Below are positions 1-16,158 of a DNA stretch of 64,000 nt, piece by piece (position 1 is the stretch's first letter; each line of letters starts with the position of its first letter). The stretch is from an uncultured Planctomycetota bacterium. GTDB taxonomy: Bacteria; Planctomycetota; Planctomycetia; Pirellulales; Thermoguttaceae. The translations under genes and the position numbers were made by a program. The notes beneath the pieces were generated by a model that saw only the letters and a list, made by a program, of their open reading frames with translations, was not told where the DNA came from and did not search any database. The DNA is taken from assembly GCA_902796885.1 (NCBI GenBank), contig CADBQY010000077.1, forward strand, positions 126-64,125, in the 5' to 3' direction.

Positions 1-665
1 GTCGGAATCTGATGACGCTTCCCGCGGATGTTCCCGCTCCAAATGGAGGTGAAGAGCAAAAGCGAGGCGTTGCAGCGCGACCCGACGATCGTCGGAAACC
101 GGAGCCGATCCGGCTTCACTTCGATTTCGCACCGCCGCCCCTGGTATTCGAGCGGCCGCTGCGCGATCCCTCCCCGGCACGCCAGCGGATAGCAGACCTC
201 CGGATAATCCTGGGCGATGGGAAACTCCGGCTCCCACGCCCCGTCCTCGGTCAGCGTGTCGCTCTGCAGGTTCACCGCAAAGAAGTTCGCCGCATCGGCG
301 CTCATCGAATCGACCGCCGAGATATAGATCCCGTAACGCGTCACCCCCATCAGGTGCGCCCGTTCCATCAGCCCGGAGAGAATCGACGTCTTCCCGAACG
401 AGCGGTAGGCGTTGACGTTCTGATACCCCCGCCGCTCGATCGCGTTCCACGCCAGATCGATGAACTCGGTCTGCGATTCCGAAAAGTCGAGATAGAAATG
501 TTCGGGGTGGTAGGTGCGCAGCCAGAGCGCCGGATCTGCCTCGCACGCGCGCCGGCGGTCCGGATCCTTCACGGCGGGAATCTCACCGATGTCGTTGAGT
601 TCCTTCTGCGCCTGAACCCGCCGCGCCTTCGCCTGTTTCTGTTTTTCAATGCCGTAGCTCGGCAC
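1..665 (-). CDS. phage terminase large subunit, N-terminal part (CDS continues past the left window edge)
   Basis: This ORF is not in the track because it is open at the window edge. I translated the minus strand from GTG 665, which has GGAGGAG 7 nt upstream. It reads VPSYGIEKQKQAKARR...ACEADPALWLRTYHPEHFYLDFSESQTEFIDLAWNAIERRGYQNVNAYRSFGKTSILSGLMERAHLMGV... with no stop down to position 1. It has a Walker-A-like RSFGKTS and an N-terminal context typical of terminase ATPase domains. Confidence 0.55.
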   Translation of the reverse strand, partial: MPSYGIEKQKQAKARRVQAQKELNDIGEIPAVKDPDRRRACEADPALWLRTYHPEHFYLDFSESQTEFIDLAWNAIERRGYQNVNAYRSFGKTSILSGLMERAHLMGVTRYGIYISAVDSMSADAANFFAVNLQSDTLTEDGAWEPEFPIAQDYPEVCYPLACRGGIAQRPLEYQGRRCEIEVKPDRLRFPTIVGSRCNASLLLFTSIWSGNIRGKRHQIP

Positions 666-1044
666 AACCACACTCCTCCAAACTTTTCCGCTCTCTCCCC
701 CGCCGCCGAACCCGTCGCCGAATTCCCGCGAACCTGCCGTCAACCCCGCCTCCCGCGCCGTCCGTCACCGGTTCCCGCGCGTTTTCCCCCCGGGGGTAAA
801 AAAATCCCTCCCCCGCGGGCGCTGCCCCCGACCTTTCGGATTTTGGCGGCGGGGGAAGGACCCCGAGCGTGCGCGGGCCGCCGGCCGTGCGGGGCGATTT
901 GGGGCCGATTCCGCGCCGGCGGGTGCGGGATGCAGCGAAAAGCAATATAACCGAAGAAAAAAAGAGGTTTTTTACGTTTTTGAAGCGTGTTCAGCGGCGC
1001 ATGAAAAGCTTGACTTTGGGCATTTCCTACCTGACTGTAGGTCT

Positions 1045-1580
1045 ATTTCTACATTTTTCATGCAGTACCCCTCTCCAAAATCCTGTAAAAATCGACACCC
1101 CCCCAGAAGCATGTAGAAACGTAGAAATATATATAAAAATAAAAAAAAAAAAAAAGAATATATATATTAGTATATAGCTTGAGAGCGATTTTACCTATCT
1201 TCTCAAAAATGTTAAGATGCGCTGTTTTTATAGTGCTTTTCATTTCTACATCAAAATGTAGAAAAATGTAGAAATGGTAGAAATCAATAGCACTATAAAA
1301 ATTATGTATCTTATCTATCTTCTATATAGTGATATAAAAACGCCCTATTTTAACTGTTAAACTGGGTTGAATCTATATCACTATACGCAAGATAGGCAAG
1401 ATATATTTATTTTAAATCTTGCCTATCTTATCAATTATACTACACGAAACAGTCATTTTTTTAATAGCACTATAAAATCAACCTATATTAACATCTAAAT
1501 TACCTAGTTTAGCAAGACGTCACCATGAATTTAATCTATTTTATCATAAGTTCAACCTATCTTAACATTTCGTTTCTACA
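1045..1580. repeat. NTGTAGAAA 9-mer family, at least 8 copies in both orientations
   Basis: Forward copies lie at 1111-1119, 1120-1128, 1257-1265, 1266-1274 and 1275-1283 (GGTAGAAA variant). Reverse copies (ATTTCTACA or GTTTCTACA) lie at 1045-1053, 1242-1250 and 1572-1580. Confidence 0.85.
1325..1429. repeat. two perfect inverted repeats
   Basis: TATAGTGATATA at 1325-1336 pairs with TATATCACTATA at 1374-1385. AAGATAGGCAAGAT at 1389-1402 pairs with ATCTTGCCTATCTT at 1416-1429, across a 13-nt A/T-only spacer. Confidence 0.9.
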
Positions 1581-1630
1581 CAGCACTATAAAATCAACCT
1601 ATATTAACATAGATTTAACCTATCTTAACA
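1466..1630 (+). repeat. 29-bp perfect direct repeat plus four direct copies of AACCTAT(A/C)TTAACA
   Basis: AGCACTATAAAATCAACCTATATTAACAT occurs at 1466-1494 and 1582-1610. The 14-mer occurs at 1480-1493, 1554-1567, 1596-1609 and 1617-1630. AGCACTATAAAA also occurs at 1289-1300, and inverted at 1225-1237. Confidence 0.9.
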
Positions 1631-1663
1631 AGGCTCAAACTAATCATTCCCGCCGGCCGGCAT

Positions 1664-1691
1664 AAAAAAAGCCGGCCGAAGAACGGCCGGC
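1664..1691 (-). terminator. rho-independent terminator of the leftward immunity-side cassette
   Basis: The minus strand reads GCCGGCCG-TTCTT-CGGCCGGC followed by TTTTTTT. It begins about 20 nt after the stop of CDS 1712..2251. Confidence 0.8.
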
Positions 1692-1711
1692 GCGATAAAA
1701 TTCTGATCTTA

Positions 1712-2251
1712 TCAATAGATTTCAGGGACATGACCTTGACTATTAGTCAGTTCAATTAACTGCGTGATATGGTAGGCAAGGTCTCTGGACTGATCGCGCA
1801 GTTCAATCAAGGCTTGCGCCCAGTCCTGACTATCGCCGCTGTCCAATTGTTTTTTCATGTCGCGCGCTAACTTAATCTGCGCGTCAATTTCATTCTTGAT
1901 TTCTTCCTTGAATGCGGCGAGGTCACGCGGAGGTTCATGAGTCAGAAATCGAAAACCCGCTTCGAGTCGGCGACGAAACGCAAGATTTTTATCAACTACG
2001 GATTCAGCATTACCGGAAAGCGGCCAAAACAGTAAAGTGAGACTGCAATAATTTTCACGAGCCGCAGCTAGGACCGTGCAACTGTTGCTTTCCTGCGATT
2101 CAAGAAGTTCTTGCAAACAGTTTTTGGCGCGCTGAAGATCGTGTTCGACAATTCCTAACCAGTACAACTCTTCTCGGATTGAATCATTAGTAAGTCGTTT
2201 CGCCCACGACCAGTCTTTCAGTTTGCCCCAATCTCTGATGTCGGTATTCAT
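1712..2251 (-). CDS. hypothetical protein, apparently all-helical, with an Rx4H (HEPN-like) motif near the C-terminus
   Basis: This is a 179-aa ORF starting 12 nt downstream of the preceding gene on the same strand, with the terminator directly after it. The motif SRDLAYH (R156..H161) fits the HEPN Rx4-6H pattern. No family was recognised with certainty. Confidence 0.6.
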   Translation of the reverse strand: MNTDIRDWGKLKDWSWAKRLTNDSIREELYWLGIVEHDLQRAKNCLQELLESQESNSCTVLAAARENYCSLTLLFWPLSGNAESVVDKNLAFRRRLEAGFRFLTHEPPRDLAAFKEEIKNEIDAQIKLARDMKKQLDSGDSQDWAQALIELRDQSRDLAYHITQLIELTNSQGHVPEIY

Positions 2252-2263
2252 ATAAAATTTCTC

Positions 2264-2830
2264 CTAATCTTTGGCCGCAAGGAAACGGCCGATCGCACAT
2301 ACGAAGTAAATGACATAGGCCTGAAACATTGATTCTCCTCCAACAGCGAGTGCGCCCAGTCCTACACCAAATAGCGTAGGACTGTATTTGGGATCAGAAA
2401 TAATAAAAGCGGCAACGATAGCGCATATTCCTCCAATCGCACATATTGAACTAAAAACAAGCCATATCGTTCCAAAAGTGCGTAGGTTTCTGGAAGCGTC
2501 ATCAAGATCTACTGCGCGCTGCCGATGAGAATAGCTTTTCCCTTTAGGTTGCAAAACATAGACAACTCGTTCCGACGCCTCATTCCCCCCAGCAGCTTCC
2601 GCCGGTTCCGGTTCGGGCGTGTTGTCCGTTTGATCGGCGGCCTGAACCGGTGGCAATTCTGCCGGGTCTTTGGGAAATTCGAGCCCCTTGACCTTCCGCG
2701 CAGGATAGATTTTCCCGTCGCATTCGATGGGGACATCCGGAGCGATCGTTCCATTTAGAGCAAGTTCTTTGAGAGTGGCGGTGTCGATCGGTCCAATTCG
2801 CTGACCGTTTTTGTAGTAGAAGAATTCCAT
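2264..2830 (-). CDS. GYF_2 (DUF4339)-like N-terminal domain protein with C-terminal transmembrane helices
   Basis: The N-terminus MEFFYYKNGQRIGPIDTATLKELALNGTIAPDVPIE fits the GYF_2 pattern. A P/E-rich linker follows. The hydrophobic stretches IWLVFSSICAIGGICAIVAAFII and LFGVGLGALAVGG...VIYFVCAIGRFL look like transmembrane helices. Confidence 0.65.
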   Translation of the reverse strand: MEFFYYKNGQRIGPIDTATLKELALNGTIAPDVPIECDGKIYPARKVKGLEFPKDPAELPPVQAADQTDNTPEPEPAEAAGGNEASERVVYVLQPKGKSYSHRQRAVDLDDASRNLRTFGTIWLVFSSICAIGGICAIVAAFIISDPKYSPTLFGVGLGALAVGGESMFQAYVIYFVCAIGRFLAAKD

Positions 2831-2992
2831 GGAGCAAGCCTTTCGTTAAGTATTGGGAATCAAAGATATTTTTATTGTACTCAAACGAAAGGTAGCCGCA
2901 AGTCCTCCAGAGGTTAGACTCTAGATCAGAAAATGTCGGAGCCGAGTAGACGTCGGGCGAGTTCGCGGATCAAATCAAGATTGCTTAGTGAT

Positions 2993-3340
2993 TTAGTTTT
3001 TGAAGTTAAAAAAATTTTCTTTTTGCAGCTGTTGAATTGCCTCCCATACGATTTTACGGTTTTCTTCCGAAAGATCGTTGAGAACGCTCTTTACAAAATT
3101 GAGAGTCGCCTGGGTAGTATCAGTCTCTTTAACGGAAACAAACATTTCGCCTTTTCCGGTTCTGAGCCAAGTTTCGGACACGTCATAGGTTGAACAAATG
3201 AGGTTCACTAGACGTGGCGTAAAAGAATTTTTTCCACTAATGACTCGTGATAAATAACTGGGAGTGAACCCGAGTTCTTTGGACATAGTGTTAAGGGACA
3301 GTCCCAAGGCGTCGGCCACAGAGATAATTCGCTTTTCCAT
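2993..3340 (-). CDS. XRE-family HTH repressor (CI-like position, no S24 peptidase domain)
   Basis: The sequence ISVADALGLSLNTMSKELGFTPSYLSRVISGKNSFTPRLVNLICSTYDVSETWLRTGKGEMF shows a classic XRE HTH plus the WLxTGxG motif. GGAGG lies 6 nt upstream of the ATG. The gene is divergent from the early operon. Confidence 0.85.
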   Translation of the reverse strand: MEKRIISVADALGLSLNTMSKELGFTPSYLSRVISGKNSFTPRLVNLICSTYDVSETWLRTGKGEMFVSVKETDTTQATLNFVKSVLNDLSEENRKIVWEAIQQLQKENFFNFKN

Positions 3341-3361
3341 AGATAACCTCCACTGTTTACT

Positions 3362-3466
3362 AGAATACTCGAATCATTGATTTTGTCAATGAATTCAGGG
3401 AAATAAAAATTTTTTCGCTTACCGGTATTGACATAGTAAATATTTTCGGTTATTCTTATTGATATA
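3362..3466. promoter_or_regulatory. divergent back-to-back promoters with candidate operators (lysis-lysogeny switch)
   Basis: Rightward promoter: TTGACA 3428-3433, 17-nt spacer, TATTCT 3451-3456. Leftward promoter: TTGACA on the minus strand at 3389-3384, 16-nt spacer, TATTCT at 3367-3362. The near-palindrome ATCATTGA-N5-TCAATGAA (3373-3393) overlaps the leftward -35. TATTGAYATA occurs at 3426-3435 and 3457-3466. Confidence 0.6.
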
Positions 3467-3496
3467 AACAACAGTTCAAGGCGAAAGGACACAAAA

Positions 3497-3688
3497 ATGG
3501 TTCCGACACCAACCCAGATTATGAATTTGGTCAAAAAACTCGATTCCCACGGGCAAGTAGCCGTGGCGGTGATCGCTGGCGCAGTATTACAGACGCAAAA
3601 AAATTCAGAAAAGATACTTCAACTTGCCAATCATTCCGCGCCGACGAGAGCGACCGCGCCCCCGACCCCGGCGGAGCCGAAGGAGTAA
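3497..3688 (+). CDS. hypothetical small protein, first gene of the rightward operon (Cro position)
   Basis: This is a 63-aa ORF with AAAGGA upstream of the ATG, directly downstream of the rightward promoter. No HTH was recognised. Confidence 0.45.
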   Translation: MVPTPTQIMNLVKKLDSHGQVAVAVIAGAVLQTQKNSEKILQLANHSAPTRATAPPTPAEPKE

Positions 3689-4193
3689 CCCGCCAGCGGC
3701 GAAAGCGTTTCCCGTCATCTCTACTCAGCGGGGTCGCCGGTAGCCTGGCCGAGGTGCGTCGCGAGTGCCTCGTTAATGCGGGTTCTTTCTCGAATTTTTC
3801 ATTCCCGCGGAACCGCGACACACGGCGTTTTATCCCGAACGTCGATTCTCCTTTGAAAGGACCGCGAAGGAAACCCGGCAGTCCGTTCAGGGCTGCCGGC
3901 GCCACGGTTCGATTCCGTGGCGCGGTCTTCGCCGCTTCGGCGGCATCGTGAACCTGGTTAGCACGGTGATGCGTGTTTTCGAACCGGGAGGGTGCTCCGG
4001 CATGTAGAGCGCTGCGTGCCGACCCTGGGCTTTCTGGGACAGACAGAGACCGTTGACATCACACACCAGTCCTGTTCAGGCGGGTTCGACTCCCGCCGGA
4101 AGCCTTCGCCGTCTCCCCGAAACGGCCACTGATCGGGGGGCGTTCCCCCGCGGGGAGACGGCGCCTTTTACACGAGTGCACGGAGGACGCACA
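3689..4193 (+). ncRNA. ORF-free, GC-rich, highly structured transcript segment with two tRNA-like modules (candidate cis-acting or processed RNA)
   Basis: Module A (3860-3927) has the stem GACCGCG/CGCGGTC, a 10-bp hairpin at 3875-3899, and CCACGG-TTCGATT-CCGTGG. Module B (4028-4104) has GGCTTTC/GGAAGCC, GGAC/GTCC, and GGCGGG-TTCGACT-CCCGCC. A UUCG hairpin GCCGC-TTCG-GCGGC lies at 3931-3944. Only implausible R/P/G-rich ORFs are found on either strand. Confidence 0.4.
4108..4169 (+). terminator. compound hairpin with a U-tract (terminator or attenuator within the early operon)
   Basis: A 12-bp perfect stem GCCGTCTCCCCG (4108-4119) pairs with CGGGGAGACGGC (4151-4162). It encloses an inner GGGGGG-CGTT-CCCCC hairpin. 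GCC TTTT follows at 4163-4169. The structure lies 25 nt upstream of ORF 4194. Confidence 0.5.
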
Positions 4194-4316
4194 ATGTCGG
4201 AATTTGATTCAGCCAGTGCGTTCCTTGAATATCTTAACGGAGGAGCCGTGACGGAATTGCAGGAAATACAGGAATGGGCACGCGAACTTTTCAGCGTAGA
4301 GAGGAGCGATAAATGA
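4194..4316 (+). CDS. hypothetical small protein (40 aa)
   Basis: An internal ATG of track ORF 4053..4316 is preceded by GGAGGA 6 nt upstream. The stop overlaps the next start (ATGA). The upstream part of the track ORF lies inside the structured RNA segment. Confidence 0.45.
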   Translation: MSEFDSASAFLEYLNGGAVTELQEIQEWARELFSVERSDK

Positions 4317-4564
4317 CCGCGCAACGAAGTCAAGAAGAAGTCACGCTGATTTACCGCAAAGCGGTTGAACTGCGTGACCGGATCGAGGAACTCGACACGG
4401 ACGATCCTGGCCTGGGGCTCGACAAGAGCGGGCTGGACCTTGCTATCCGTGCCCGGTGGCAAGGGGGAAGCAACGAATACAAGTATAACAGACTCCGCGA
4501 CGCGGTGGTGAACGCGGAGGCTGGGTTGCGAAAGTATCAATATTTGACGGAGGACAAATCATGA
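4313..4564 (+). CDS. hypothetical phage protein
   Basis: This 83-aa ORF has ATGA overlaps with both neighbouring genes, indicating translational coupling. Confidence 0.6.
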   Translation: MTAQRSQEEVTLIYRKAVELRDRIEELDTDDPGLGLDKSGLDLAIRARWQGGSNEYKYNRLRDAVVNAEAGLRKYQYLTEDKS

Positions 4565-5148
4565 AACGAACATTGATGTTCAGTCTGTTAATTCTTGCCG
4601 CTGCACTGATCGGCGGCTGCTCATCGGCCAGCGCGCAGTGCGTCGGCGGAAACTGTTCGCGCGGCTGGGGCGTCTGGTCGCCCTGGGTCGGCGGGTATTA
4701 CTGGCAGTCGCCGTGCGCTGGGGGGAAGTGTTCTGTGACGAAGAAAGCGGAACCGGGCGGGGAAGCCCCCGCGTCGGTCGCCGAGGAACCCGACGAACCG
4801 ATTCCCGCCGACGAAGCGCCTCAGCTCGTCGAGTTCAAACCGTTCTGTCTTCGCGTGGCGGAACTCGTGAACGTCCGCCGCAAAGCGGCCGGACTTCCCG
4901 CGCTGGAGCTCGACGAATCGCTCTGTTCCGGGTGCGACCGGCACAGCGCGTGGATGGCCTCCGGCGGCGGCCTGACACACGCCTACTACGGCGGCGGCCG
5001 CGAGTGCATCGCGCAGGGTGTCCGCTCTCCGGAGGCGGTCGTCAATCTCTGGCTCGGGTCGAGCGGCCACCGCGCGATCATCCTCGGCACCGGCCGCACG
5101 CTCGGCGTCGGCTGCAGCGGGTCGTTCTGGACCCTGAGAGTGAGGTGA
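4561..5148 (+). CDS. CAP/SCP (YkwD-like) domain lipoprotein with a Cys-rich N-terminal region
   Basis: The signal peptide and lipobox read MKRTLMFSLLILAAALIGGC. The CAP-like core is RRKAAGLPALELDESLCSGCDRHSAWMASGGGLTH...GHRAIILG. Confidence 0.7.
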   Translation: MKRTLMFSLLILAAALIGGCSSASAQCVGGNCSRGWGVWSPWVGGYYWQSPCAGGKCSVTKKAEPGGEAPASVAEEPDEPIPADEAPQLVEFKPFCLRVAELVNVRRKAAGLPALELDESLCSGCDRHSAWMASGGGLTHAYYGGGRECIAQGVRSPEAVVNLWLGSSGHRAIILGTGRTLGVGCSGSFWTLRVR

Positions 5149-5919: not shown

Positions 5920-6731
5920 GCCGCCGGCCGTGGGTGACGCCGGCGCTGGAACCGGTGATTCTGGAGCTCTTCACGGCGGGGAAAACCTATCGTGAGATCA
6001 AGCGGACGGTCGGCTGTTGCGACGACACGATCAACGCAGTGCTTGCGAAAAACGGGATCCCGCGCCGGAGAGACGGGAAGCCGACGACGGCGGGGAACGC
6101 CGCGAAGATCGAGGCTCTGGCCGCCGCCGGCAAGACGAACTCCGAGATCGCCGAGTCGACGGGGCTGTCGGAACAGACGATACGGCGGTACCGTTACGAT
6201 CACGGGATTTCGCAAGACCCGCGCAAGCGCCGTCCGTTCGCGAGCCGTCTCGACGCGCACGACGAAACGGTCAGACGAATGCGGAGCTGCGGCGCAAGTT
6301 ACGTCGAAATCGGCGAGGCGCTCGGCGTGGGGCCCGGAACGGTCAGCCGCTACTGCGCGAAACGCGGTTACTGCGCCCCCGAATTTCCCGCGGAGACGCG
6401 GGAGAAGGTCCTCGACTTGGCGCGCGCCGGCGAACCGTGGCGCGTGATCGTGCAAGAGTCGGGACTGACAATCCATTTCGCCAAGGCGGTCTGTCGCACG
6501 GCGGGGCTCTGGCCGAAACCGCAAAAAAACCGGATATACGATCCGGAAGACGACGAGATCTGGTTCCCTCCCGCGGACGCGCCGGATTACGGCGACAATT
6601 TCCAACTCAAGCCGCAGCACCGCGAACGGCTGGAACACGTCCGCCGGTGCTTGCGGCACGGAAAATCGGTCTCTGGGAAACACAGACGAGTCATTAAATT
6701 TACACACCGTTCAACGAAAGGAACGACATGA
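5916..6731 (+). CDS. DNA-binding protein built of about four tandem HTH modules
   Basis: Four repeats fit a resolvase- or sigma-r4-type HTH pattern. They are ELFTAGKTYREIKRTVGCCDDTINAVLAKNGI, ALAAAGKTNSEIAESTGLSEQTIRRYRYDHGI, RMRSCGASYVEIGEALGVGPGTVSRYCAKRG and DLARAGEPWRVIVQESGLTIHFAKAVCRTAG. Confidence 0.7.
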   Translation: MSRRPWVTPALEPVILELFTAGKTYREIKRTVGCCDDTINAVLAKNGIPRRRDGKPTTAGNAAKIEALAAAGKTNSEIAESTGLSEQTIRRYRYDHGISQDPRKRRPFASRLDAHDETVRRMRSCGASYVEIGEALGVGPGTVSRYCAKRGYCAPEFPAETREKVLDLARAGEPWRVIVQESGLTIHFAKAVCRTAGLWPKPQKNRIYDPEDDEIWFPPADAPDYGDNFQLKPQHRERLEHVRRCLRHGKSVSGKHRRVIKFTHRSTKGTT

Positions 6732-7075
6732 CGAACTCACTTTTGAAACAGGTCCGCGCGCTGGTAAACGCCGCGCGGAACGAAAACTGGATCCCGTGCG
6801 GCAAGGCGTATGTGGCGCTCATGACGGTACTGCGCGTGGCGGTCCGTGAAGTTCTCGGCGAGAACACCGCGCAGACGACGCTGACGAAAGTCGCCTATGC
6901 GTGGCTCGAAGCGGCGGTTCAGGGTCAGGACGTGCCGTGCGAACTGCCGAAAAAGGCCGAGCCGAAACCGGCAGCCAAAACGGCAGCCGCGAAAGCAAAA
7001 CCCGCGGCGAAGAAATCCGCAAAGAAAACCGGGAAGCCCGCCGCCAAGCCCGCGAAGAAGGGAGCAAAGAAATGA
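6728..7075 (+). CDS. hypothetical protein with a histone-H1-like A/K/P-rich C-terminal tail
   Basis: This is a 115-aa ORF whose tail reads KKAEPKPAAKTAAAKAKPAAKKSAKKTGKPAAKPAKKGAKK. It has an ATGA overlap with the upstream gene. Confidence 0.65.
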   Translation: MTNSLLKQVRALVNAARNENWIPCGKAYVALMTVLRVAVREVLGENTAQTTLTKVAYAWLEAAVQGQDVPCELPKKAEPKPAAKTAAAKAKPAAKKSAKKTGKPAAKPAKKGAKK

Positions 7076-7403: not shown

Positions 7404-7619
7404 ATGCTCTGCATCACACGCTATCCCGGCGAATCGTTCGTCCTGACCCTCCCCGGCGGAGAGGAGATTTTCGTCGAAATCGCCGGCGAGTGCCGGCACC
7501 GTCTCAAGGTCCGGATCTCCGCGCCTGGCGAGGTGAAAGTGCTCCGGACCGAGCTGCTCGACCACACGCCGAACATTTACTTAAAGGGAAAACCCGTTCC
7601 GAATAAGGAGGTGAAATAG
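7404..7619 (+). CDS. csrA: CsrA-family RNA-binding protein (phage-encoded)
   Basis: MLCITRYPGESFVLTLPGGEEIFVEIAGECRHRLKVRISAPGEVKVLRTEL aligns with E. coli CsrA [53 protein letters not shown] lies upstream. This is only the 3' part of track ORF 6897..7619. Confidence 0.75.
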   Translation: MLCITRYPGESFVLTLPGGEEIFVEIAGECRHRLKVRISAPGEVKVLRTELLDHTPNIYLKGKPVPNKEVK

Positions 7620-14749: not shown

Positions 14750-15976
14750 ATGGCGTTTGTCATAAGTACAAAAGAGAAAAACGGCACCGCGCACAAGGTC
14801 CGGTTCTCGCTCGGAGGCCGCTTGCGCGTCATTTCGTTCGGCCGGAAATACCGGAAGCAACAGGTCGAGGAGATCGCCGTCTTCGTGCAGCGGATCGCCG
14901 ACTGCATCGAGACCGGTTCGCCGCCGTCGAAACAGCTTTCGGCGTGGCTCGATTCGCTGACGGACGATTTGCGCCGACGATTGGAACGCGCCGATCTCTT
15001 GACGCCCCAGGACCGGGACGCCACCGAGATCACGATCCGCCAGCTCTACGGCAGCTGGCTCGCTTATCCGTTCGACCGGAAGGAATCGACGCTGCAAAAT
15101 CACGAGACGACGTTCAAACGGGTTTGCGACTTCTTCGATCCGGACGAACGCGCCGCGGGCGTAACGGTCGAGCGCGCGCTGGAGTTTCGGCGCTATCTTC
15201 TCGGTACCGGCAAGGCGCCGGCAACCGTCTCCGGTCACGTGAAAAATCTCCGTCAGTGGTGGAATTTCGCGGTAAAGGAGAATCTGGCGGCGTCGAATCC
15301 GTGGAACGAGGTTCCGCGCGACTCGCAGCGGAACCCGGCGCGCGGCTTTTACGTCACGCCGGAAATGTACAGCGCGCTTCTGGACGCCTGTCCCGACCAG
15401 GACTGGCGAACGCTGATCGCGTTGTGCCGGATCGGCGGTCTGCGATGTGACTCCGAAACGAGCCGCGTCCGCTGGATCGACGTGAACTGGGAAAAGAAAA
15501 CGCTCTTGGTCCATTCGCCGAAGACGGAACGCTACGGCAAGGGGTTCCGGCTGATTCCGCTCTTTCCGGAGCTTGAACAGGAACTTTCCCGTTCGTGGGA
15601 ACAGTCTGAGGAGGGCGCCGAGTTCGTCCTGTCGCGTCAACGCAACCGGATGAACTTGCGAATTCAGATGACGCGGATCATTTTCCACGCGGGGCTCTGT
15701 CCGTGGGAGCGGGTTTTCAACAATCTTCGGGCGAGCCGGGCGACGGAACTGCTCCAGCGGTTTCCGGCGCACGTCGTAGCAGCGTGGCTCGGACACACTC
15801 CGGAAGTGGCGGAAAGTCATTACCTGATGGTCCGCCGTGAAGATTACGAAGCCGCGGCGTCCCTAAGCCTTGAGGGTCCGAACCCCCAACCCGCCCCGAA
15901 AAAGGGCCGTTTTTCCGACCGAAAGTACCAAAATCCGGAATTGCCGAAAATTGGTACTTTTTCCGACCGTTCCTGA
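14750..15976 (+). CDS. int: tyrosine-type phage integrase
   Basis: The catalytic region shows RIGGLRCDSE..., NLRASRATEL and AWLGHTPEVAESHY (R...xxR...H...Y). The gene is adjacent to the tRNA gene. Confidence 0.85.
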   Translation: MAFVISTKEKNGTAHKVRFSLGGRLRVISFGRKYRKQQVEEIAVFVQRIADCIETGSPPSKQLSAWLDSLTDDLRRRLERADLLTPQDRDATEITIRQLYGSWLAYPFDRKESTLQNHETTFKRVCDFFDPDERAAGVTVERALEFRRYLLGTGKAPATVSGHVKNLRQWWNFAVKENLAASNPWNEVPRDSQRNPARGFYVTPEMYSALLDACPDQDWRTLIALCRIGGLRCDSETSRVRWIDVNWEKKTLLVHSPKTERYGKGFRLIPLFPELEQELSRSWEQSEEGAEFVLSRQRNRMNLRIQMTRIIFHAGLCPWERVFNNLRASRATELLQRFPAHVVAAWLGHTPEVAESHYLMVRREDYEAAASLSLEGPNPQPAPKKGRFSDRKYQNPELPKIGTFSDRS

Positions 15977-16084
15977 GCGGAATCAGGGGTATTTGAGCGG
16001 ACTTTTCACCGTCCCCAAAGATACCAAAATTTCGCAAGACCCCTAAAAATAAGCACCTAGAACAATCCTCCCCACCCCATCAAG

Positions 16085-16158
16085 CACGCCCGGAGGGATT
16101 CGAACCCCCAACCCTCGGTTCCGAAGACCGATGCTCTATCCAGTTGAGCTACGGGCGC
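16085..16158 (-). tRNA. tRNA-Arg (anticodon UCG)
   Basis: The minus strand reads GCGCCCG-TA-GCTC-AACTGGATA-GAGC-A-TCGGT-CTTCGGA-ACCGA-GGGTT-GGGGG-TTCGAAT-CCCTC-CGGGCGT-G. This folds by hand into a full cloverleaf. The 7-nt anticodon loop CTTCGGA gives anticodon TCG. CCA is not encoded. Confidence 0.9.

Follow-up and report, generated by a model that had tools for sequence, protein, structure and literature searches.

A GYF-domain membrane protein and a putative helical cassette encoded behind the repressor of a prophage in a planctomycete assembly

Accessory genes behind the repressor are a familiar feature of prophages. In phage lambda, cI is followed by rexA and rexB, of which RexB has four transmembrane (TM) helices; sieB of P22, Sie2009 of lactococcal phages, and gp15 of HK97 are further repressor-linked prophage exclusion genes. 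Here, we analyzed a locus of this kind in a 64,000-nt stretch of contig CADBQY010000077.1 from an uncultured Planctomycetota bacterium (assembly GCA_902796885.1), referred to as the window. Its minus strand encodes an XRE-type repressor, a 188-aa membrane protein with an N-terminal GYF domain (termed GYF-TM), and a 179-aa protein. A preliminary description had tentatively interpreted the latter two as a dedicated defense or toxin module, composed of a membrane partner and a putative RNase of the HEPN type. We found that the element is a prophage integrated at a tRNA-Arg gene and that the pattern is the known one of accessory genes behind a prophage repressor, here recruited from two uncharacterized, lineage-restricted families. 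GYF-TM is the conserved core of the lysogeny/immunity operon in this phage lineage, and the 179-aa gene is a discrete recombining cassette in a variable terminal slot. As judged from their distribution, the two genes are not an obligate pair; their association is facultative but real. With a probability of roughly 0.5, we regard the locus as the lysogeny operon of a temperate phage, in which GYF-TM acts as a stand-alone exclusion or prophage-protective factor and the 179-aa protein is an independent, non-enzymatic helical accessory.

The three open reading frames and the 12-nt gap between the last two were recovered exactly as initially described: the 115-aa repressor at 2993-3340, GYF-TM at 2264-2830, and the 179-aa protein at 1712-2251. 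The repressor was assigned by Pfam (HTH_3, E = 1.4e-8) and by PHROG transcriptional regulator/repressor families (E-values down to 5.7e-13). It has no peptidase domain, and its helix-turn-helix (HTH) half is 50% identical to the repressor of a related phage locus (L015; related loci carry L numbers and homologous proteins P numbers). A 162-nt spacer (2831-2992) separates the repressor gene from the GYF-TM gene. The 12-nt spacer that follows GYF-TM (2252-2263) holds AGGAG, the ribosome-binding site of the 179-aa gene. The operon is closed by a strong intrinsic terminator (1661-1691, minus strand; GCCGGCCG-TTCTT-CGGCCGGC followed by T7) with a stem of eight GC pairs at 1691..1671, which by its position shields the downstream AT-rich block and the large-terminase gene. 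Just 5' of the repressor gene lies a promoter-like site, TTGACA-16-TATTCT (3362-3389, minus strand; consensus match 10/12), which is a candidate for the maintenance promoter of the operon. A divergent promoter-like site, TTGACA-17-TATTCT (3428-3456, plus strand), also a consensus match, points toward the early genes, and operator-like repeats containing ATTGA(C/T) (3376-3390, 3427-3441, and 3458-3466) overlap with the -35 boxes of both sites. As no terminator was found from the repressor until after the last gene (none before 1691), and as all three genes share one strand with a promoter-like site at their 5' end, the sequence is compatible with co-transcription. The proposed lambda rexAB-like position was thus confirmed, with both genes on the same strand downstream of an XRE repressor and divergent TTGACA-type promoters upstream of it. 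An Rfam scan of positions 1-5000 yielded nothing above threshold.

The 162-nt spacer had been suggested to contain an internal promoter. The hexamers TTGCGG (2901-2896) and TACAAT (2879-2874) are present on the minus strand with a 16-nt spacer, and the leaders of L008 and L009, which are closely related, share both hexamers but differ at two spacer positions. However, only 3/6 positions of the -35 box are matched, the site falls below the promoter-scan threshold, and it is absent from the other alleles, which leaves a weak candidate. In related phages, the same slot holds a gene for an 89-98-aa protein or a DUF2513 gene; no remnant of their small TM gene was detected in the spacer by tblastn. 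The three genes are AT-richer than the rest of the prophage, as noted in the preliminary description (GC content of 41-50% vs. ~62%; GC at third codon positions of 0.44-0.46 vs. 0.74-0.84 in other prophage genes). GYF-TM and the 179-aa gene are both under purifying selection, with ratios of non-synonymous to synonymous substitution rates (dN/dS) of 0.09-0.36.

The assignment of a GYF_2 domain to the N-terminus of GYF-TM and of membrane helices to its C-terminus was upheld. The protein belongs to the Pfam family GYF_2 with 27.3 bits vs. a gathering score of 25.8. Its AlphaFold2 (AF2) model has a mean predicted local distance difference test (pLDDT) score of 72, with values of >90 in the C-terminal hairpin. 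The protein is composed of the GYF_2 domain (~1-52), a disordered Pro/Glu-rich linker (57-97), a basic juxtamembrane segment, and the hairpin (~100-187), which AF2 models as two helices (100-144 and 150-187). The modeled GYF domain has a beta-beta-alpha-beta-beta order within residues 3-43 (strands 3-7 and 10-15, helix 17-25, strands 34-37 and 40-43), and Foldseek matched it to GIGYF2 (7rup), GltJ from Myxococcus (7z3c), and Smy2 (3fma) with TM-scores of 0.45-0.63 normalized to target length. For the hairpin, Foldseek returned generic helical hairpins. The first helix is strongly hydrophobic (Kyte-Doolittle value of 2.45) and the second less so. Since there is no signal peptide, the net charge before the first helix is +3, and the hairpin is confidently modeled, an N-in/C-in topology with a cytoplasmic GYF domain is predicted.

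Even when a profile was used as the query, the GYF-TM family comprised seven clusters at 90% identity among 5.8 billion proteins (homologues P0005-P0009 and P0013). No match was obtained in an IMG/VR scan or by tblastn of GenBank phages. The GYF domain is almost invariant across homologues, whereas identity over the full length amounts to only 36-43%; the overall dN/dS is 0.21-0.36, and both this ratio and dN itself are lower within the GYF domain. Membership in the S-2TMbeta or two-TM effectors of the type found in cyclic oligonucleotide-based antiphage signaling systems was not supported, with no Pfam match and a non-significant Foldseek match in BFVD (E = 0.019, TM-score of 0.28). Literature searches on DUF4339, on DUF2513, and on GYF domains in combination with prophage yielded no relevant work.

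An HTH repressor precedes GYF-TM in all related phage modules recovered (window, L002/L003/L013, L008, L009, L015, and L016), and the genes around GYF-TM vary. The slot before GYF-TM contains an 89-98-aa protein, a DUF2513 gene, or nothing, and the slot after it is empty or contains a 117-aa protein, the 179-aa protein, or both. The window has the order XRE, spacer, GYF-TM, 179-aa gene, terminator, and L017 shares GYF-TM (74% identical), the 179-aa gene (97% identical), and an identical terminator. In L016, L018, and L019, the order is HTH, DUF2513, GYF-TM (36% identical), 117-aa protein, and 179-aa protein (>90% identical), and in L002, L003, and L013 it is HTH, a 95-aa TM protein, GYF-TM, and the 117-aa protein, followed by genes on the opposite strand. 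L008 and L009 both carry HTH, an 89-aa TM protein, and GYF-TM; the contig of L008 stops just after GYF-TM, and in L009 a terminator-like hairpin and an AT-rich block follow. In L015 (HTH, 98-aa protein, GYF-TM), a copy of the window's terminator with 86% identity comes directly after GYF-TM, without a 179-aa gene, and is again followed by an AT-rich block. L010 and L014 lack a repressor and have the order glgC, GYF-TM, 143-aa TM protein. Members of the 179-aa family were found in three further loci: L004 (ribbon-helix-helix gene, a 120-aa protein 30% identical to the 117-aa protein with E = 2e-18, and a 178-aa homologue), L001 (ThyX fragment, 105 aa, 82 aa, a 173-aa homologue, 98 aa), and L012 (an AbiLi-like AAA_21 ATPase with an in-frame stop, 250 aa, P0010).

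The idea of a dedicated two-gene module was not borne out by these arrangements, as each gene occurs without the other. GYF-TM lacks the 179-aa gene in L002, L009, L015, and L010; conversely, L001 and L012 have a 179-family gene but no GYF-TM, and on the short contig L004, no GYF-TM gene was seen within the 740 nt that precede the family member. Comparison of L018 with the window by blastn revealed 94.9% nucleotide identity from 2261 to 1582, i.e., through the terminator, while the upstream GYF-TM gene aligned over its first 170 nt only (74%). Position 2261 lies inside the 12-nt spacer, 10 nt ahead of the start codon of the 179-aa gene, and the jump in identity marks a sharp recombination boundary there, with the 179-aa gene behaving as a discrete unit. 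In the survey of related prophages that the preliminary description had proposed, GYF-TM keeps its place beside the repressor, and the pair does not consistently co-occur. Still, members of these very rare families are joined in one operon in three distinct arrangements (window; L017; L016/L018/L019), and their association is hence non-random.

Several of these loci showed additional features. In the operon of L012 (896-3324), an in-frame stop at 1754-1756 interrupts the AbiLi-like AAA_21 ATPase gene (PADLOC E = 9e-32 and 3.7e-25); a 250-aa protein without family match comes next, and P0010 abuts it without a gap (2859/2860). In an assembly of a rumen planctomycete, the GYF-TM allele P0008 (L010 310-879; L014 5692-5796) follows glgC at a distance of 66 nt, and mraZ is close by. 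The segment of this allele has a lower GC content than the flanking host genes, and the locus is possibly a prophage remnant or the host origin of the GYF-TM gene. In L001, paralogous 105-aa and 98-aa proteins (466-783 and 1670-1966; 32% identical) flank the genes for the 82-aa and the 173-aa protein, which suggests that the flank around this 179-family cassette was duplicated. A true DUF2513 gene is located upstream of GYF-TM in L016 and L018; a DUF2513-like nature of the 117/120-aa family was considered and dropped (hhalign probability of 0.7%, not significant).

The 179-aa protein is soluble by hydropathy (maximum Kyte-Doolittle value of 0.9), and AF2 predicted an all-helical protein with five helices, in line with the preliminary description, at a mean pLDDT of 49. 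Its dN/dS of 0.09-0.16 against three homologues demonstrates that the gene is real. A word-index search of the 5.8 billion proteins identified the relatives P0001-P0003, and an exhaustive profile search of 1.84 billion representatives identified one true remote member, P0010 (154 aa, E = 6e-28). The family thus amounts to ~5 clusters among billions of proteins, with no match in the IMG/VR scan or by tblastn of GenBank phages.

The HEPN suggestion had been based on SRDLAYH near the C-terminus. This string does fit Rx4H, but the match is not above chance, since composition-preserving shuffles of the protein contained Rx4-6H in 59% and Rx4H in 25% of cases, and it is not conserved in homologues. 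In the five-sequence alignment, R156 is replaced by K in P0001 (97% identical), P0002, and P0003 and by S in P0010, which also has K at H161 and G at H105, so that there is no invariant histidine. No HEPN or other nuclease family was found for the protein in Pfam and PADLOC (E ≤ 1), PHROGs, or NCBIfam, and a PDB profile search returned nothing below E = 0.7. Foldseek with the AF2 model, which had been proposed as a check for the HEPN fold, listed generic helical bundles (E ≥ 0.06) and no HEPN protein; due to the low model confidence, this fold search is uninformative. Based on the non-conserved R156, H161, and H105, the chance-level motif, and the null profile searches, we rejected the HEPN RNase reading. 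No conserved catalytic histidine motif, of the HEPN type or another, is present in the protein. A second candidate was a TPR-like protein. The exhaustive profile search also listed the TPR-repeat proteins P0011 and P0012, the scores of which are inflated by repeats. An hhalign probability of 4.8% and the lack of any TPR family in Pfam at E ≤ 1 left this as a weak lead only.

In our favored explanation, the repressor's promoter would drive the operon in lysogens, and GYF-TM would be inserted N-in/C-in by its helical hairpin, so that its highly conserved GYF domain would face the cytoplasm from the inner membrane. In this position, the domain might bind a proline-rich partner, and GYF-TM would most likely act alone in superinfection exclusion or prophage protection. 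The 179-aa protein may be a binding factor or modulator that adds a second function or tunes the first, rather than the nuclease half of a two-component toxin. By position, GYF-TM is analogous to lambda rexAB, P22 sie, lactococcal Sie2009, and HK97 gp15, and an exclusion or protective role is possible by this analogy.

Several observations weigh against this explanation. No similarity to rexAB, P22 sie, Sie2009, or HK97 gp15 was detected. The promoter calls are sigma-70 consensus matches, and promoters of the probable planctomycete host may differ. The universal presence of GYF-TM beside the repressor fits a core role in lysogeny control equally well, and one allele is located beside glgC without a repressor (L010 and L014). 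GYF-TM and the 179-aa protein co-occur in three arrangements, so a functional coupling between them is conceivable. Finally, the AF2 model of the 179-aa protein, with its pLDDT of 49, leaves room for a fold-level relationship.

Among the alternatives, a role of GYF-TM in core lysogeny control was considered because the repressors of these loci have no peptidase domain for self-cleavage. As a partner anchored in the membrane, GYF-TM could respond to a signal from the envelope or the state of the cell, or it could sequester or stabilize the repressor or an antirepressor; the 179-aa gene would then be an unrelated moron. Unlike typical variable morons, GYF-TM is part of every related immunity module recovered, the repressors are short (115-136 aa, HTH only), and several of them have Pro/Lys-rich C-terminal tails that are possible GYF ligands. 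However, the window's own repressor has no such tail, the allele beside glgC has no repressor, and no precedent is known; we regard such a role as unlikely. Another possibility is that both genes serve lysogenic conversion and act on host physiology, i.e., on the envelope, motility, or carbon storage, with no part in phage conflict or lysogeny control. Bacterial GYF_2 domains are present in non-phage membrane and motility proteins, with Myxococcus GltJ among the fold matches, one GYF-TM allele adjoins glgC in a planctomycete chromosome, and the same prophage carries a CsrA-like gene and a CAP-domain lipoprotein, which are host-directed. As repressor linkage is the dominant context, this reading seems quite unlikely.

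Two further alternatives assume that the proteins function together. A modular, Rex-like abortive infection (Abi) system without HEPN would have GYF-TM as a membrane effector with a pore-forming or depolarizing hairpin, and the 117-aa and 179-aa proteins as exchangeable sensors or regulators in the cytoplasm that dock on it, perhaps via the GYF domain. The three arrangements in which two extremely rare families share one operon are consistent with such a system, and the 117/120-aa family bridges them, as it follows GYF-TM in L002 and precedes the 178-aa homologue in L004. In addition, the 179 family comes last in the AbiLi-like operon of L012, and the hairpin has a weak Foldseek likeness to the heads of alpha-pore-forming toxins and to S-2TMbeta effectors (E ≥ 0.019). 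These fold matches are not significant, though, and L009 and L015 have no soluble partner after GYF-TM, while L001 and L012 have the 179 family without GYF-TM. Moreover, the proline-rich linker belongs to GYF-TM itself, and the 179-aa and 117-aa proteins contain no PPG-type motifs. All co-occurrences fall within one phage lineage, and shared descent plus cassette shuffling explains them. We therefore consider a system of this kind doubtful, and rather improbable in its most far-reaching form, in which GYF-TM is the membrane effector of a previously undescribed modular Abi/exclusion system of planctomycete phages, its GYF domain docks swappable 117- and 179-aa sensor cassettes, and the 179 family has additionally been recruited as the terminal part of an AbiL-like ATPase system. 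The two-component Abi or toxin module of the preliminary description, with the 179-aa protein as HEPN RNase (R156/H161) and GYF-TM as its membrane partner, is very improbable. It would account for SRDLAYH near the C-terminus of a protein predicted to be helical, for the place downstream of the repressor, and for P0010 directly after an AbiLi-like ATPase operon part, but it is largely refuted by the conservation pattern of the motif residues, and the frequency of the motif in shuffles, the profile and fold searches without a HEPN match, and the facultative pairing of the genes speak against it as well.

The prophage setting proposed earlier was confirmed by an integrase gene beside tRNA-Arg, by a replication module, and, at the left edge, by a large terminase. 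A tyrosine integrase gene (14750-15976) adjoins tRNA-Arg(TCG) (16084-16158), and the N-terminal part of a large terminase (~1-760, minus strand; phrog_38, E = 7.7e-6) runs off the left edge of the window. Thus, the structural genes of the prophage are expected outside the window, and the lysogeny operon is transcribed toward them. No attachment-site repeat of ≥ 11 nt was found between the tRNA-Arg region and positions 1-1800, which fits a prophage that extends beyond the left edge. Early genes on the plus strand encode a Prim-Pol/DUF3987 protein, a DEAD/ResIII helicase, an AAA_24 ATPase, an HTH protein, and a CAP-domain lipoprotein. L002, a related metagenomic phage contig of 40.9 kb, has the early module in common (helicase, RusA, AAA_24, CsrA, and CAP). 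In addition, it has an immunity region, next to it a stretch rich in AT, and beyond this the genes for large terminase (phrog_38, E = 4.7e-14), portal, and capsid. The sole match for GYF-TM in genome collections comes from an uncultured rumen planctomycete, and STEW19 and XIEF21 are the metagenome samples named for related loci. The host of the temperate phage is probably a rumen or gut planctomycete.

Some features outside the operon caught our interest. An AT-rich non-coding block (950-1660, 27-35% GC) separates the operon terminator from the large-terminase gene. It holds six copies of TGTAGAAA (seven in the whole window, 0.8 expected), four copies of AGCACTATAAAA (0.14 expected), and eight motifs resembling CCTATCTTA, and many copies of the three motif families form inverted pairs. 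The block including its motifs is kept in L009, L015, and L018 (70-86% identity), and L002 has an equivalent block of 29% GC just 5' of its terminase. The block at 950-1660 may serve as a pac/cos site, a late-promoter region, or an origin. On the plus strand, 7404-7619 encodes a 71-aa CsrA-like protein (MLCITRYPGESFVL...) within the early/replication operon; with it, the phage carries its own copy of a global RNA-binding regulator. In L002, the gene at the syntenic position has a weak Pfam CsrA match. The early operon also contains the gene for the CAP/SCP-domain protein (4561-5148, plus strand) with a lipoprotein-type signal (…LIGGCSS), which is kept in L002, L005, and L015; among phage early genes, one for a secreted CAP-domain protein is unusual. 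A 115-aa protein from the early region (6728-7075, plus strand) has a long Ala/Lys/Pro-rich, histone-H1-like C-terminal tail (…KPAAKTAAAKAKPAAKKSAKKTGKPAAKPAKKGAKK).

Dropping the HEPN label prevents the spread of a false nuclease or toxin annotation, and two very small orphan families gain a defined genomic address. The locus provides a clean case of how a phage immunity operon is built, with one conserved core gene and plug-in slots, in the barely studied phages of rumen and gut planctomycetes. Should GYF-TM turn out to function in exclusion, a bacterial GYF-domain protein would be linked to phage–phage conflict for the first time, and the ligand of bacterial GYF_2 domains could be sought through it. 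Nothing here contradicts the familiar pattern of accessory genes behind a repressor.

Regarding known systems, neither family is detectably related to Rex, Sie, Abi, toxin–antitoxin, or HEPN families. Like HEPN proteins, the 179-aa protein is all-alpha by prediction and has one Rx4H near its C-terminus; it differs in that motif and histidine are not conserved and no profile matches. Its residues 81-119 (ESVVDKNLAFRRRLEA..THEPPRDLAAF) resemble one repeat unit of P0011/P0012, i.e., of the TPR_10/TPR_12 repeats of STAND/NACHT-TPR proteins. The likeness to AbiL operons concerns a single locus, L012, where P0010 is the last gene of an operon opening with an AbiLi-like AAA_21 ATPase; this ATPase is broken by a stop, the 250-aa middle protein matches no AbiLii model, and the window contains nothing like it. 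GYF-TM shares with GYF_2 proteins such as GltJ (PF14237, formerly DUF4339) its N-terminal 50 residues, which score above the gathering threshold and superpose in fold. It is unlike other GYF_2 proteins in its combination of GYF domain, disordered linker, and two-helix hairpin, in its location in a phage immunity operon, and in its restriction to seven clusters. Compared to lambda Rex and the exclusion families of PADLOC and PHROGs, neither window protein has sequence or profile similarity, homology to RexA or RexB was not found, and PADLOC and PHROGs gave no match to any other defense family for either protein. GYF-TM has a cytoplasmic GYF domain and two helices instead of the four of RexB, the membrane gene precedes the soluble gene, and the two genes are not bound to each other. 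What the locus has in common with lambda cI-rexA-rexB is the layout, i.e., a repressor followed on the same strand by genes for a membrane and a soluble protein, a terminator, and an adjacent divergent promoter/operator region, and with this layout, expression in lysogens would be expected.

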